A stretch of 40,069 nucleotides of DNA from Cellvibrionales bacterium (lineage in GTDB: Bacteria; Pseudomonadota; Gammaproteobacteria; Pseudomonadales; JAHEGP01): contig JAHEGP010000003.1 of the NCBI GenBank assembly GCA_024645065.1, forward strand, positions 1 through 40,069, given 5' to 3'. Below are positions 35,936-40,069 of this stretch, in pieces (the stretch's first letter is position 1; each line of letters starts with the position of its first letter). Under the pieces are notes generated by a model, which saw nothing but the letters and a program-made list of their open reading frames with translations, made no database searches and was not told the DNA's origin. Made by a program: the position numbers and the translations under genes.

Positions 35936-36547
35936 GTGAAGCTGCCGTTGGATATGACACAGGTAAAGGGGTTTCTTGCCGAAGACGAGGGCATGGCATT
36001 GTACGAGGCGGCCCGGGTGGCAGCCAGCCTGGGTCCAGTGCTCGAAATTGGCAGCTACTGCGGTAAATCGACGATTTACCTCGGCCTCGCCTGTCAGGCC
36101 ATGCAGTCGACCCTGTATGCAGTTGACCATCACGCCGGTTCCGAGGAACACCAGCCGGGCGAAATGTTCCACGACCCCGGCCTGTTCGATAGCGACAGCG
36201 CCCGGATGGACAGCTTCAAAACGTTTCGCCGCAATATCAATGCAGCAGGACTCAGTGACACCGTGGTACCACTGGTCGCACCGTCGAGCCTCGTGGCGCG
36301 TGACTGGCGAACCCCTCTGGGGATGGTATTCATTGACGGGGGGCACAGCCTTGACGCAGCCCTGGAGGACTACCGCGGCTGGAGCGGCCATCTCGTACGT
36401 GGCGGGATACTGGCGATACACGACCTGTTTCCCAACCCCGCTGAGGGTGGTCAAGCGCCCTATACCATCTACCAACTGGCGCTGGCGTCAGGTCTCTTTG
36501 AACCGTTGCGACAGGTCTGCACCCTCGGCTTGTTGCAGCGGCGGTAA
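35936..36547 (+). CDS. Methyltransf_24-family O-methyltransferase resembling mycobacterial MeT1 (MMP 1-O-methyltransferase)
   Basis: GTG 35936 after AGGAG; KGFL..DEG..LY, EIGSYCGKST, VDHHAGSEEHQPG..HDP, WRTPL..FIDGGH, IHDLFPNPAEGGQAP match the MeT1 motifs as I recall them. Confidence 0.8.
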   Translation: MKLPLDMTQVKGFLAEDEGMALYEAARVAASLGPVLEIGSYCGKSTIYLGLACQAMQSTLYAVDHHAGSEEHQPGEMFHDPGLFDSDSARMDSFKTFRRNINAAGLSDTVVPLVAPSSLVARDWRTPLGMVFIDGGHSLDAALEDYRGWSGHLVRGGILAIHDLFPNPAEGGQAPYTIYQLALASGLFEPLRQVCTLGLLQRR

Positions 36548-37576
36548 CAGCTTCACCTGGGTAAACAAGCGTGACGCCGGGGTGTGCAGCGTAAGGGCAT
36601 CCGCCGCCAGCAATATCGCTGCCGAGGTCCAGGTGGGCCGTTCATCGGGCCACATAACATCCTCGATAAACTGGTAACCCGTCCAGTACGCGCCCCCTTC
36701 ATGGCGCCATTGGTGCAGCCAGCTGTACAGGATCACTGCTCGCGCGTGATCCCCGGCAGCCAATAGGGCCATGGTCAATTCACAGGATTCAGCCACCGTG
36801 ACCCAGGGCTCATCGCTGGTACAGCGCACGCCCATTCCTTCCTCGACAAACAGCTCCCAACGCTGCTGCAATCGAGCCCTTGCCGGCCCCCGGGTATAAA
36901 CTCCGCACAACACGGGATAGAACCAATCCATGGAATAGCGCGCCTTGCTCGCCCAGGTGCGATCGAACCGCTCCGGCTTGTTGCGCAGGGCATTGCCCAG
37001 CGCCTCGCGAGCCACCAGCCAATGAGGGCGGTGCTGTCCTACAGTTACCGCAATATTGTGGGCGCACTCGAGGCTCTTGAAAATAGAGCTGCAGCCGGTA
37101 ATCAGGGCGTCTTCCCGCGGTGTGCCGCAGGCTTCGACCGCCCAGTGAATCTCACCGTGCTCAGTCTGGAGGCGCAACACAAACTCGATTGCATTCTCCA
37201 CCGTGGGCCACATCGAGCGTAAAAAAACCTCGTCGCCGCTGATCAGGTAGTGGTGCCAAACGCCCACCGCCACATAGGCGACAAAATTGGATTCCCTGCG
37301 ATCGGTATTTTCCACCTCGCCCTGGATGTAGGCAGCCCACCAGCTGCCATCCTCGAGCTGATTATCCTGCAGCCAGCGATAGGCACGCACCGCTGCGACG
37401 TGCTCACCGCCAATGCTCAATCCCATCGCTGCCTCAACATGGTCCCAGGGATCAAGGTGTCCGCCATGAAACCAGGGTATCGCGCCGGAATCTTCCTGGC
37501 TGCGAACGATAAACTCAAGCGTGGGCCGCAGGTAGTCCTTGGGGAAGAGTCCCTGGGAAAGATATAAACCACTCAT
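36488..37576 (-). CDS. (alpha/alpha)-barrel protein usually annotated 'prenyltransferase/squalene oxidase repeat'; resembles mycobacterial MmpH (MMP hydrolase)
   Basis: Q..SGAIPW..GGHLDPWDHVEAAMGL, QLEDGSW, ESNFVAYVAVGVWHH, RYSMDWFYPVL, PWVTVAESCE, GAYWTG, WP.ERPTWT. Confidence 0.75.
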   Translation of the reverse strand: MSGLYLSQGLFPKDYLRPTLEFIVRSQEDSGAIPWFHGGHLDPWDHVEAAMGLSIGGEHVAAVRAYRWLQDNQLEDGSWWAAYIQGEVENTDRRESNFVAYVAVGVWHHYLISGDEVFLRSMWPTVENAIEFVLRLQTEHGEIHWAVEACGTPREDALITGCSSIFKSLECAHNIAVTVGQHRPHWLVAREALGNALRNKPERFDRTWASKARYSMDWFYPVLCGVYTRGPARARLQQRWELFVEEGMGVRCTSDEPWVTVAESCELTMALLAAGDHARAVILYSWLHQWRHEGGAYWTGYQFIEDVMWPDERPTWTSAAILLAADALTLHTPASRLFTQVKLLPPLQQAEGADLSQRFKET

Positions 37577-38289
37577 GCGGCTCTCTCCTTGTGAAAGTAC
37601 ATGACCACGCTCTTGCCCATGATGGGGTTGAGCACTTTCTCTGTGGTTTGCGTCAGCCAGGGCTGATCAAGGATGTCCCAGACCAGTAGCCGATGGTACA
37701 TCTTGATAATGGGGTTGCTATACTGGGTATTCCAGAACGCGCACCTAAGCCACCAGAACGGTGTGTGAAGGGCGTGGGCCCAATGCCGGTAATAGTAGCG
37801 AAATCCGCAGGACTCAATATCCAGGCGCAACTCATCGGCATTGAAAATACGCAAGTGCCCGCCCTCGCAATCATGATACTCACGACTGAAAGCCCAGCAG
37901 ATTTGTTCTGGCCATGAGCGCGGCACGCTGGCACAAAACGCGCCGCCGGGTTTCAAAACCCGCTCGATTTCCGCCAACACACCGCGCCAATCGTCGATGT
38001 GCTCCAGCACCTCAGAACAGATGACCTTGTCGAAGGTATTGTCGGCAAACGGCAAATTCAGGGCATTGGCGCAGGAAAGTGCAAAACCCGCCTCGCGGGA
38101 TGCATGGGGTGCCAGCGGCGCAAATTTTTCAATCGTGGTTTTGAGGTCTTCGATATTCAGGTCGATACCAAAGGCGTGGACATCTTTATCCATGTGCGCG
38201 GTGATGGTATGGCGGCCCTCACCGCAGCCCAGGTCAAGCACATAGTCACCGGGCAGCAAACCAAGCCGGCTGTAGTCAACTGTTCTCAT
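37573..38289 (-). CDS. Class I SAM-dependent methyltransferase (Methyltransf_11) resembling the OrfD putative 3-O-methyltransferase of MMP clusters
   Basis: MRTVDYSRLGL, VLDLGCGEGRH, LPFADNTFDKVICSEVLEHI, PEQICW..S.EYH..EGGH.RIF, HALHTPFWWLRC, GKSVVMY; ATGA overlap with the downstream gene. Confidence 0.8.
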   Translation of the reverse strand: MRTVDYSRLGLLPGDYVLDLGCGEGRHTITAHMDKDVHAFGIDLNIEDLKTTIEKFAPLAPHASREAGFALSCANALNLPFADNTFDKVICSEVLEHIDDWRGVLAEIERVLKPGGAFCASVPRSWPEQICWAFSREYHDCEGGHLRIFNADELRLDIESCGFRYYYRHWAHALHTPFWWLRCAFWNTQYSNPIIKMYHRLLVWDILDQPWLTQTTEKVLNPIMGKSVVMYFHKERAA

Positions 38290-39598
38290 GGGCCTTCAAC
38301 ACGTCACGGTAATAGCTGGTCATTTGACGGGCACAGACATCCCAGCAAAACTTTTCCAAAATCCTGTCTCGACCCGCCTGGCCCAGCTGGGCGCGCCGGG
38401 CCGGGTCATCCAGCAAGCGCGCCACGGCTCCGGCTAGAGCCAGGGAATTCCGGGGTGGCACCACTTCTCCGGCGTCGCCAACCACCTCTGCCAGCGCGCC
38501 ACCGGTGGTCGAGACAACAGGCACCCCGCAGGCCATAGCCTCGCCGGCGGGCAGGCCAAAGCCCTCGTACACCGAAGGCACCACCACCAGCGTTGCCTCG
38601 GCATAGTAGCGCACCAGACGTTCGGTCGAGATCCCGTTGACGAGTTCGATCGCGTGGCCCACGCCCAGCTTCGCTATCAGCCGCTGGGTCTCGCCACCGG
38701 GCCTGGGTTTACTGACCAGCAGCAGCTCCAGACCCGGATACTGCCGCAACAAGCGGGCGAATGCCTCGATCAGGTAGCGTACGCCCTTGAGCGGCGCATC
38801 TGCGGAAGCCGTTGCCATCAGCCTCAGGGGCCGCCGTTCCACCCCGGGCACAGGCGCAAAAACCTCGGTGTCGATGCCGTTGTAGACCAGTTGGATGCCT
38901 TGTTCAGGCATATCGAAAGCCAGCGCAATGTCCTTTCGCGATTGGCTGGAAACGGTCACCACGTTGCGCAGTTGACGGGCCACCCGTCTCTGCATCGACA
39001 GAAAATGATACCAGCGACGGATCAACAGCTTTTCCCACCATTTATGAGCGGCGTTGAGGGCGATCATCTTGTCACTGCTTATGGGATGGTGAATAGTGGT
39101 GACCAGGGCTTGGCGACGCTGGATATTGAGCATGCCATAAGCCAGGCACTGGTTATCATGCACCAGGTCGTAGCGGCTGCCATGCCGCTTCAGGTAGTCG
39201 TCCACGCGCATACCGAACGCCAGAGGCTCGGCAAAACCGCCGGTGAGCTTGCCAAACCATTCCGCCCAGTTGCTCAACCTCAGCATGTGGCGCGGGCGAA
39301 TCGAGGCCAGGCCGTTCTCGTAAATATTCATTCCCGGCAGTTTGATCAGTTTGACCCTGGGATCGAGGTGCGGGTAGGGCTCTCCCGAGATGACATCGAC
39401 CCGATGTCCCGCGTCCACCAGCGCCTTGCTCAGGTATTTCAGGTAAATGCCCTGGCCACCACCGTAGGGCGCGCTGCGATAGCCCAGCAGGCATATCCGC
39501 AGTGATGCCTGCTGGGCTGCGGCGCCGATCGGGATCACCTCTGCTGATCGGCCAGGATGGGGAGGGCTGGAATTTGCTTCCGCCTGATTGATCAACAC
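38276..39598 (-). CDS. GT4 glycosyltransferase resembling mycobacterial ManT (alpha-1,4-mannosyltransferase)
   Basis: RICLLGYRS.PYGGGQGIY, SGEPYP, TGGFAEPLAF, HDNQCL, TIHHPI, TASADAPLKG, EX7E motif EGFGLPAGE; AGGAG RBS; 14-nt overlap with the next gene. Confidence 0.85.
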   Translation of the reverse strand: MLINQAEANSSPPHPGRSAEVIPIGAAAQQASLRICLLGYRSAPYGGGQGIYLKYLSKALVDAGHRVDVISGEPYPHLDPRVKLIKLPGMNIYENGLASIRPRHMLRLSNWAEWFGKLTGGFAEPLAFGMRVDDYLKRHGSRYDLVHDNQCLAYGMLNIQRRQALVTTIHHPISSDKMIALNAAHKWWEKLLIRRWYHFLSMQRRVARQLRNVVTVSSQSRKDIALAFDMPEQGIQLVYNGIDTEVFAPVPGVERRPLRLMATASADAPLKGVRYLIEAFARLLRQYPGLELLLVSKPRPGGETQRLIAKLGVGHAIELVNGISTERLVRYYAEATLVVVPSVYEGFGLPAGEAMACGVPVVSTTGGALAEVVGDAGEVVPPRNSLALAGAVARLLDDPARRAQLGQAGRDRILEKFCWDVCARQMTSYYRDVLKAHENS

Positions 39599-39855
39599 AA
39601 CTCTCCTGCGCCCGCACTATTCGCTTAGGGATTAGGGTTCCGGAAACCGCTCTGCGAATTGTTCCAAACTTGCCTGCTCAACCGACCCACAACGATGCAG
39701 CGCTGGCACCGCGACCAGGCGGGTTCACGTATCAGGGGCACTGCGGAATCGACATAGCCCGAGTATACAGCAAACCGTGGCCAGCTGCGGTATGATTCCC
39801 AACCGTGGAATCGCCAGCCAGGCCCAGAGGGGGTACTATTATCAAGCTGACCAAT

Positions 39856-40069
39856 ATGGCGGAAGCCGAGTACAGGAGCTTGCAGCAGGGCGCCAGGGTG
39901 CTGGAGGAGGATTACCGGGGACCCAAGGTAATGATCCTGGCAGACGGGCGCATCATGAAATTATTTCGGCCACGCAAGACCTGGACCAGCGCCCGATTGT
40001 TTCCCCGCAGTTTGCGCTTTGCGAAAAATGCCCGGACGCTGCAGCAACTCGCCATCCCAACCGTTAGCG
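39856..40069 (+). CDS. Partial LPS kinase (Kdo/WaaP family, 'toluene tolerance protein'-like); runs off the window end and is absent from the ORF track
   Basis: MAEAEYRSLQQGARVLEEDYRGPKVMILADGRIMKLFRPRKTWTSARLFPRSLRFAKNARTLQQLAIPTVS, open to the end; start may be upstream (in-frame GTG 39805). Confidence 0.7.
   Translation, partial: MAEAEYRSLQQGARVLEEDYRGPKVMILADGRIMKLFRPRKTWTSARLFPRSLRFAKNARTLQQLAIPTVS

Follow-up and report, generated by a model that had tools for sequence, protein, structure and literature searches.

Four adjacent genes near the end of a gammaproteobacterial contig raise the question of whether the methylmannose polysaccharide (MMP) pathway of actinomycetes also occurs in Gram-negative bacteria. 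We addressed it in a stretch of 40,069 nucleotides from contig JAHEGP010000003.1 (Cellvibrionales bacterium, assembly GCA_024645065.1), the whole of which is referred to here as the window. The function of MMP is still debated, with proposals including fatty-acid metabolism and cold adaptation, and we know of its description only from mycobacteria and Streptomyces; the mycobacterial MMP cluster and the MeT1 structure were reportedly presented by Ripoll-Rozada in 2019 (PNAS). A sequence-only reading of the window had proposed an apparently complete MMP gene set and was aware of no biochemical description of such a glycan in Proteobacteria, and our literature search agreed, finding MMP described from Actinobacteria only; the homologue alignments in the supplements of PMC9883506 (150 MmpH, 149 ManT) may contain non-actinobacterial sequences. 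The published MMP gene survey covered only actinobacterial genomes (PMC9883506).

The four genes and their MMP counterparts

The open reading frame listing showed the four genes at 35936-39598 (Table 1) to be arranged as the sequence-only reading had described them: a GT4, a Methyltransf_11 and an alpha/alpha-barrel gene overlap on the minus strand (by 14 bases and 4 bases), and a plus-strand Methyltransf_24 gene converges on the last of these with a 60-base overlap. The four reading frames are uninterrupted and retain their functional residues. A simple hydropathy scan found neither membrane-span-like nor signal-peptide-like hydrophobic stretches in the four proteins (KD19 maximum 1.37), all of which look soluble by their sequences.

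Table 1. Genes of the putative MMP cluster in the window
Gene	Assignment	Coordinates	Strand	Length or family
manT-like	GT4 (GT-B) alpha-(1->4)-mannosyltransferase homologue	38276..39598	-	440 aa
pmeT3-like	class I SAM methyltransferase, candidate mannose 3-O-methyltransferase	37573..38289	-	Methyltransf_11
mmpH-like	(alpha/alpha)6-barrel endo-alpha-(1->4)-mannosidase homologue (MMP hydrolase)	36488..37576	-	
meT1-like	MMP reducing-end 1-O-methyltransferase homologue	35936..36547 (ORF 35891/35936-36547)	+	Methyltransf_24

The meT1-like protein (PF13578, E 1.4e-21) had M. hassiacum MeT1 (6g7d/6g80/6h40) as its sole match in the PDB, aligned to residues 24-217 of the 218-aa ORF (194 residues) with an E-value of 2.1e-54; because its relatives measure 203-205 aa, we favor the GTG start at 35936. 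In the resulting 203-aa protein we found all four of the MeT1-like motifs claimed earlier, i.e., EIGSYCGKST at position 37, DHHAGSEEHQPG at 64, FIDGGH at 132 and HDLFPNPAEGGQAP at 162, each aligned with the same block of M. hassiacum MeT1 (6g7d), and these blocks were kept across 82 homologues. A search of its own genome returned the meT1-like protein as the only strong match.

While Pfam offered only a sub-threshold GH95 match for the mmpH-like protein (21.6 bits vs. a cut-off of 27), phmmer matched its residues 9-344 to MmpH (PDB 7qsj) with an E-value of 6.4e-96 vs. 9.5e-5 for the runner-up chain. In MmpH catalysis Asp47/Asp50 serve as acid and Glu262 as base (PMC9883506), and MmpH residues Asp47, Trp49, Asp50, Phe102, Thr163, Met215, Tyr219, Glu262 and Glu265 correspond to D42, W44, D45, F98, T160, M216, Y220, E263 and E266 of the window protein. 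These nine were kept in 88-94 of 94 homologues (E263 in 94/94, D42 in 93/94, D45 in 88/94); in Nonomuraea MmpH the positions of Asp50 and Phe102, which the window shares with M. hassiacum, are occupied by Asn and His.

The manT-like protein (PF00534/PF13439, E 9.4e-30 and 1.8e-22) matched M. hassiacum ManT (PDB 7qsg) over residues 29-432 (phmmer; 3e-99, runner-up chain 8.8e-30); its length is counted from a GTG at 39598, an uncertain start, with homology from about residue 29. The ManT residues His142, Lys240, Glu313, Gly314, Phe315, Leu317 and Glu321 (named in PMC9883506) are H170, K271, E345, G346, F347, L349 and E353 in the window, and are invariant in 76/76 homologues, all but Nonomuraea from Pseudomonadota loci. 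ManT also has modelled guanine contacts, Leu291/Asp293, which imply a GDP-mannose donor (PMC9883506). In our alignment with 7qsg this Asp was absent from the window protein: Asp293 (GLSD) falls on T325 (GIST), a mapping taken from a printed alignment and uncertain by one position, and position 325 is Thr in 74 of the 76 homologues, with Nonomuraea keeping the Asp. ManT may thus use a different donor here, although a Thr at this position could still hydrogen-bond. A supply of GDP-mannose is indicated by a mannose-1-phosphate guanylyltransferase encoded in the genome (TIGR01479, 540 bits vs. a cut-off of 373), its gene split over two contig ends. Nearly all of the published catalytic and sugar-binding residues that we checked in ManT and MmpH are kept in the aligned sequences, and one putative ManT guanine contact is not.

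Judged as sequence similarity, the PDB matches to MMP enzymes (E 2e-54 to 3e-99) are far beyond chance, and three of the four roles are supported by direct matches to solved M. hassiacum enzymes together with the functional residues. The comparison with these enzymes that had been suggested earlier gave MeT1, ManT and MmpH each as by far the best PDB match, and by homology the roles proposed for the other three genes were borne out, ManT and MmpH by E-values of 3e-99 and 6e-96 and the candidate OrfD-type role by position and 43% identity.

This fourth gene, pmeT3-like, encodes a Methyltransf_11 core (PF08241, E 1.4e-20) with a conserved C-terminal extension of ~110 residues. Its matches at E <= 1e-30 comprised 147 representative clusters, many full length (1-234); among solved structures its best relatives were generic methyltransferases (3bus, E 2.5e-12), none of them MMP-specific. 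The gene holds the pMeT3 position between manT and mmpH, likewise in the Cellvibrionales-type loci, and its product shares 43% identity (E 1e-62) with that of the Nonomuraea gerenzanensis gene between ManT and MmpH; it is this position and the identity to an actinobacterial equivalent that point to a putative pMeT3 role. The taxa named in three cluster look-ups were Acidimicrobiia, Ilumatobacter, Desulfobacterales, Desulfatibacillaceae and Cellvibrio, with no Mycobacterium, and the control set of the genome search (n=14 genomes) likewise contained none. Even for the mycobacterial pMeT3 (MHAS_04403/MSMEG_6483) a 3-O-methyltransferase function is no more than "putative" (PMC9883506), and for the window's pmeT3-like enzyme 3-O specificity is likewise a prediction.

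Distribution and evolutionary history of the cluster

All 7 genomes of the window's genus carry the cluster, as do 59 of the 151 genomes sampled from its order. The co-occurrence survey that the sequence-only reading had called for showed MeT1 and MmpH in exactly the same 59/151 genomes (in 14 of the 59, by hand count, separated by >5 kb or placed on separate contigs) and all four genes together in 71 of 80 Cellvibrionales-type loci. Cultured carriers include Congregibacter, Halioglobus, Zhongshania, Spongiibacter and Litorivivens. Elsewhere in Pseudomonadota the cluster is sporadic, and in the examined loci of other orders and classes, and in Nonomuraea, all four genes were found together in the same order. 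The earlier claim of an MMP gene set in a Gram-negative gammaproteobacterium was right as to the host, as the nearby hldE, waaC and waaA and the nearest named relatives confirm; the set is not confined to this organism but widespread in the order. Hundreds of gammaproteobacterial species genomes, those of easily grown marine strains among them, hold a complete conserved set, which suggests that a glycan regarded as peculiar to actinomycetes probably has a much wider range of producers.

In single-gene and three-gene trees the window genes sit inside the clade of all Cellvibrionales-type rows; both include one actinobacterial row, and neither resolves the long, deep branches or favors a direction of transfer. 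The three-gene tree included 20 of the 80 Cellvibrionales-type loci and omitted L091, L092 and L097, which lacked one of the three genes in the locus sequence retrieved. A further implication is that the cluster has moved between phyla. The sequencing runs containing the stretch were four DNA runs from one sediment-metagenome study, with no RNA run listed among them.

Marine Gammaproteobacteria of the kind that carry the cluster often have many wax-ester/triacylglycerol synthase (WS/DGAT) genes; we counted 7 matches in the source genome and 12-14 in three congeners. WS/DGAT was present in 38/59 MMP carriers vs. 28/92 non-carriers (naive Fisher p 5e-5, a signal at clade level), and the two traits did not track each other in the three mixed families inspected (f5, f12 and f18). 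We treat a link between MMP and wax-ester synthases as a lead only.

The expectation that automated annotation hides the cluster held for most names we met ("class I SAM-dependent methyltransferase", "YrrM", "UbiE", "prenyltransferase"), but one JGI record (P0033) does read "MMP 1-O-methyltransferase". Annotations now reading "prenyltransferase" or "UbiE/YrrM methyltransferase" can be corrected, and the easily grown, non-pathogenic marine carriers offer simpler organisms for testing the polymer's function.

Proposed product and alternative explanations

Our preferred explanation, with a probability of roughly 0.7, is that the four genes are orthologues of the actinobacterial manT-pmeT3-mmpH-meT1 genes and would most likely yield an O-methylated alpha-(1->4)-mannan, soluble and cytoplasmic, through the mycobacterial mechanism. 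The analysis showed homology, residue and gene-order conservation, strict co-occurrence and a supply of GDP-mannose. We infer enzyme specificity, product structure, location and physiological role as follows: ManT would lengthen oligomannoside primers from GDP-mannose, the Methyltransf_11 enzyme would methylate the 3-OH of the added mannoses, MeT1 would cap the free reducing end by 1-O-methylation, and MmpH would cut mature chains into defined fragments serving as new primers ("self-recycling"). An enzyme that 1-O-methylates reducing ends implies that the reducing end of the glycan is free rather than attached to lipid. By analogy with the proposals for mycobacteria, the glycan could bind long acyl chains or contribute to cold adaptation. 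The carriers presumably use type II fatty-acid synthesis, and the mycobacterial rationale of FAS-I relief may therefore not carry over; this raises the question of why a lipid-binding glycan would be kept alongside a Gram-negative envelope and such a fatty-acid synthesis system.

The same enzymes might instead make a related but chemically distinct methylated glycan, with another donor sugar or nucleotide, chain length, methylation pattern or extra substituents, which we regard as unlikely. Identities to the actinobacterial proteins of only about 42-50%, the Thr replacing the ManT guanine-contact Asp in nearly all homologues, the second methyltransferase's specificity being putative everywhere and the acetylated variant made by S. 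griseus (PMC9883506) all point this way; they have to be set against the retention of the named mannose-binding and catalytic residues of MmpH and ManT (except that Asp) and of the MeT1 motif blocks, and against the fact that all four functions stay together across very distant lineages. We think it improbable that the product is a cell-surface modification, i.e., a methylated mannan placed on the LPS core or exported as O-antigen or capsule, despite a genomic setting that suggests it. In the genus LPS-core genes surround the cluster, with hldE, waaC and a GT4 gene on one side (waaA is also nearby in the window) and, in a sister genome, a Kdo/WaaP-family LPS kinase and a GT4 gene on the other; further neighbours in the window or in L008, a locus from an independent genome of the same genus, encode a DUF6625 protein and a protein without a family. 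Moreover, 3-O-methylmannose reportedly caps the chain end of polymannose O-antigens in Gram-negative bacteria (PMC9445017). However, while hldE is the immediate neighbour in the window and in 30 of the 80 related loci, it is not in the other 50, the four genes occur together without an LPS neighbourhood in other lineages, and among the genes examined beside the cluster in the window or L008 there was no transporter, polyprenyl-phosphate priming enzyme, ligase or WbdD-like terminator. All four proteins also look soluble, and the pairing of a reducing-end 1-O-methyltransferase with a primer-regenerating endo-hydrolase does not fit assembly on a lipid carrier.

An artefact, in which actinobacterial DNA was mis-assembled or mis-binned onto a gammaproteobacterial contig, or a decaying relic, is very improbable. 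The assembly is fragmented (353 contigs, 87% complete, 3.3% contamination) and has the cluster close to the end of a contig, but L008 has the same hldE/waaC junction (86-91% identity), the cluster is also found in complete chromosomes of cultured strains, and the genes keep open frames and functional residues. Their GC content (0.57-0.62) is unremarkable, being within the window's range, and together with the tree placement this argues for long residence rather than recent import or a chimeric contig.

Extending the preferred reading, that of a cytoplasmic MMP-like mannan, we tentatively speculate, while still rather doubting it, that polymethylated mannose polysaccharides may be widespread in the cytoplasm of abundant marine Gammaproteobacteria (Halieaceae, Spongiibacteraceae, allies and some lineages with 0.9-2.1 Mb genomes), where they would carry or buffer long acyl chains in cells without a type I fatty-acid synthase. 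If so, these polymers could also add O-methylated sugars to marine organic matter.

Comparison with known systems

In polymannose O-antigen systems with a 3-O-methylmannose cap, the chain grows on a lipid carrier, an ABC transporter exports it, and methylation is confined to its end. They resemble the proposed system in combining GT4 mannosyltransferases with SAM-dependent mannose methylation in a Gram-negative cell, but the window has a reducing-end methyltransferase and an endo-hydrolase instead, with no transporter or terminator among the genes examined beside the cluster. Streptomyces griseus, whose ManT homologue is 53% identical to the M. hassiacum enzyme (PMC9883506), provides an MMP-type polymer from outside Mycobacterium; its polymer bears acetyl groups, whereas the window's conserved four-gene unit includes no acyltransferase. 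In Nonomuraea gerenzanensis (NZ_LT559118.1, locus L100), for which we found no MMP report in the literature, ManT, Methyltransf_11 and MmpH are co-directional and MeT1 is convergent as in the window, with tblastn identities to the window's ManT, Methyltransf_11, MmpH and MeT1 of 44, 43, 43 and 49%; it differs by a 1.3-kb gap before MeT1, and the region is unannotated in the record. The M. hassiacum cluster, MHAS_04402-04405, encodes ManT, pMeT3, MmpH and MeT1 in that order (Maranha 2023, PMC9883506). The window differs from it in its host, a Gram-negative gammaproteobacterium with LPS genes alongside, and in the Thr found in place of the modelled guanine contact Asp293 of ManT, but it shares the same four families, a gene order that matches the locus-tag order, and three proteins that match the solved structures.

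The cluster and its match to mycobacterial enzymes

The source genome is a 3.1 Mb assembly in 353 contigs (87% complete), and the window is one entire contig of 40,069 bases. The sequence-only reading had placed four adjacent genes of a methylmannose polysaccharide (MMP) set on it, and the ORF listing and Pfam bear out their position. Successive genes of the minus-strand trio overlap by 14 and 4 bases, and the 362- and 203-residue genes are convergent with a 60-base overlap. A longer Methyltransf_24 frame is possible from 35891; we favor the tabulated start because relatives are 203–205 residues long. NCBIfam supplied a specific name for none of the four proteins. The GC content of the cluster (0.57–0.62) falls inside the range of the whole window, and the contig outside it, with genes for a TonB-dependent receptor, a copper ATPase, AceK, a topoisomerase B subunit and a FecCD permease, is ordinary gammaproteobacterial chromosome.

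Genes of the MMP-type cluster in the window
Product	Residues	Position	Strand	Basis
Methyltransf_24 (MeT1-like) protein	203	35936-36547	+	ORF listing and Pfam
Barrel (MmpH-like) protein	362	36488-37576	-	Sub-threshold GH95 match only (Pfam)
Methyltransf_11 protein	238	37573-38289	-	Pfam
GT4 (ManT-like) protein	440	38276-39598	-	Pfam GT4 domains

When each cluster protein was compared with all solved structures (PDB), the sole matches to the Methyltransf_24 protein were those of M. hassiacum MeT1 (6g7d, 6g80 and 6h40; E-value 2.1e-54), and the MeT1-like motifs named in the sequence-only reading are all present, aligned with the MeT1 structure. The best structure for the barrel protein was MmpH (7qsj, 6.4e-96; runner-up chain 9.5e-5), and that for the GT4 protein was 7qsg (3e-99; runner-up chain 8.8e-30). 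The latter was deposited as 'D-inositol 3-phosphate glycosyltransferase'; its residue numbering agrees with that of Maranha et al. (PMC9883506), and on that ground we treat it as their ManT structure. The Methyltransf_11 protein matched generic methyltransferase structures only, the top one being 3bus (2.5e-12). The matches to MeT1, MmpH and ManT, together with the shared gene order, support the interpretation of these genes as a putative MMP gene set.

The same paper gives Asp47 and Asp50 as the acid and Glu262 as the base of MmpH, with Trp49, Phe102, Thr163, Met215, Tyr219 and Glu265 surrounding the sugar subsite, and names His142, Lys240, Glu313, Gly314, Phe315, Leu317 and Glu321 in ManT (PMC9883506). 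We mapped these residues by eye on printed structure alignments and then tallied them in MAFFT alignments of homologs from the fetched loci. All equivalents are kept in the window's MmpH (D42, W44, D45, F98, T160, M216, Y220, E263 and E266), being conserved in 88–94 of 94 sequences, and in its ManT (H170, K271, E345, G346, F347, L349 and E353), where they are conserved in 76 of 76. The exception is ManT Asp293, modeled as a guanine contact (PMC9883506), which aligns with Thr325 of the window (38624–38626), a mapping uncertain by one residue. Of the 76 ManT homologs, which apart from Nonomuraea come from Pseudomonadota loci, 74 have Thr at this position; Nonomuraea, the single actinobacterial sequence in the alignment, has Asp. 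The Asp-to-Thr change may reflect a lineage-specific shift in donor recognition.

Distribution and inheritance

A literature search that covered few subscription papers returned no account of MMP or MMP genes in Proteobacteria, and the published survey was confined to 162 mycobacterial and related actinobacterial genomes (PMC9883506). The cluster described in the sequence-only reading is real, but it is not peculiar to this organism. A MeT1 homolog is found in all seven genomes of the window's family, which consists of one genus, and in 59 of 151 sampled genomes of the order (32 of 96 genera; E-value ≤1e-30). MmpH is present in exactly the same 59 genomes, less than 5 kb from MeT1 in 45 of them (hand count); in the other 14 the genes are 20–710 kb apart or on separate contigs, both nonetheless retained. 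Scanning a single genome from each species confirmed at least 588 MmpH relatives, the best 80 of which are all from Gammaproteobacteria, chiefly Halieaceae and Spongiibacteraceae. The four-gene set is complete in 71 of these best 80 loci; of the rest, seven show no MeT1 in the sequence fetched, while two are truncated at the contig start. In 30 of the 80, hldE adjoins the cluster. The MMP-type gene set is more aptly described as lineage-wide among marine Cellvibrionales-type Gammaproteobacteria than as a feature of a single organism. Cultured carriers among the best 80 include Congregibacter variabilis, C. brevis, Halioglobus sp. Uisw_031, Zhongshania aliphaticivorans, Z. aquimaris, Spongiibacter thalassae, Litorivivens lipolytica, Kineobactrum sediminis, Pseudohalioglobus lutimaris, Seongchinamella sediminis and Haliea sp. 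E17, and through such non-pathogenic strains the predicted glycan chemistry is directly testable. At the L. lipolytica locus, mmpH and meT1 are separated by an insertion of two paralogous ORFs (583 and 563 residues; L028:7090–10623), both of which are hydrophobic at the N-terminus.

Occurrence is sparse at the class and phylum levels, with matches in 10 of 401 genomes of the class sample (several of them 0.9–2.1 Mb in size) and 5 of 401 of the phylum sample (two from other classes). Every gene found at the 12 loci from these samples outside the window's own keeps the cluster order; in fetched stretches of roughly 4 kb, no MeT1 was found at L091, L092 and L097 and no ManT at L093. The order is retained in the small genomes G192, G274, G401, G546, G357, G370 and G169 (loci L092–L096, L098 and L099), which are Gammaproteobacteria of other orders, 0.9–2.1 Mb in size and mostly 96–100% complete. 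That the cluster is kept in small genomes suggests that its product matters. By methyltransferase sequence, the family also has named members in Cellvibrio, Acidimicrobiia, Ilumatobacter, Desulfobacterales and Desulfatibacillaceae. One JGI record of the MeT1 family is already titled 'MMP 1-O-methyltransferase', so automated pipelines are starting to label this family.

In a methyltransferase tree the Pseudomonadota loci, except two, fall in one well-supported group, and the Nonomuraea and Acidimicrobiia representatives form a group apart from it. In a three-protein concatenated tree the window is nested in a clade that takes in all 20 of the Cellvibrionales-type rows used. Branching inside this clade broadly mirrors taxonomy, which fits vertical descent over a long period in that lineage. 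The trees do not resolve their deep branches, which are long. Some gammaproteobacterial versions are more distant from the window than the actinobacterial version is, so the cluster has passed between phyla.

The wax-ester synthase/diacylglycerol acyltransferase family (PF03007) has seven matches in the window's own 87% complete genome (G000; contigs C61, C229, C273, C317, C88, C101 and others), 12–14 in three congeners (G001, G003 and G004) and none in 14 control genomes. Many PF03007 genes are a mycobacteria-like trait, and their abundance overlaps with MMP carriage at the clade level only.

A predicted cytoplasmic pathway

The simplest reading of the sequence matches is that the mycobacterial MMP scheme operates with these four proteins. 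ManT would elongate an oligomannoside, the Methyltransf_11 enzyme would methylate its 3-OH groups, MeT1 would block the reducing end, and MmpH would cut mature chains into new primers. The genome encodes a mannose-1-phosphate guanylyltransferase; this guanylyltransferase/isomerase gene is split over two contig ends (G000:C235:1–1089 and G000:C221:4676–5095), which is an assembly break and not a broken gene.

The surroundings of the cluster would suggest another, unlikely product, a lipid-linked polymer of LPS type, as its neighbors are the LPS-core genes hldE (766 bits), heptosyltransferase I and waaA, along with a GT4. Divergent from manT, a plus-strand ORF (39805–40068) runs off the contig; its counterpart at the sister-genome locus L008 has 259 residues (L008:2898–3677), and no Pfam family was found for either. 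Downstream of this counterpart come DUF6625, a GT4 and a Kdo/WaaP-family kinase, and in this genus the cluster is therefore embedded in an LPS-core region. However, enzymes predicted to methylate the reducing end and to regenerate primers by hydrolysis fit a free cytoplasmic glycan and are ill-suited to a lipid-linked surface polymer; this is the chief argument against the LPS-type product. All four cluster proteins lack a hydrophobic stretch resembling a membrane span or signal peptide.

The second methyltransferase and actinobacterial gene order

The Methyltransf_11 family, with 147 representative clusters at E-values ≤1e-30, many of them full-length matches that take in the C-terminal extension, is by its sequence a distinct one. 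Some database proteins are open frames uniting the methyltransferase with MmpH (P0141, 606 residues; P0154, 590 residues) or with ManT (P0194, 530 residues; P0177; P0257); these could be real fusions or equally frameshift artifacts, as cluster genes overlap by few bases.

A tblastn search of a plasmid collection matched Nonomuraea gerenzanensis record NZ_LT559118.1 (L100). This record has the size of a chromosome (11.85 Mb) and is filed among plasmids under the name 'plasmid I'; just 10 features are annotated in it, and the MMP-type cluster carries no annotation. ManT, Methyltransf_11 and MmpH are consecutive on one strand there, with a convergent MeT1 1.3 kb beyond, and have 44, 43, 43 and (MeT1) 49% identity to their window counterparts. 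From this layout and these identities, the window Methyltransf_11 protein is a member of the family occupying the pMeT3 slot of an actinobacterial cluster. According to the published account, the order in M. hassiacum is ManT (MHAS_04402), pMeT3 (04403), MmpH (04404) and MeT1 (04405) (PMC9883506), and the window has this same order; whereas 1.3 kb separate MeT1 from the rest of the Nonomuraea cluster, the window's MeT1 and MmpH genes overlap.
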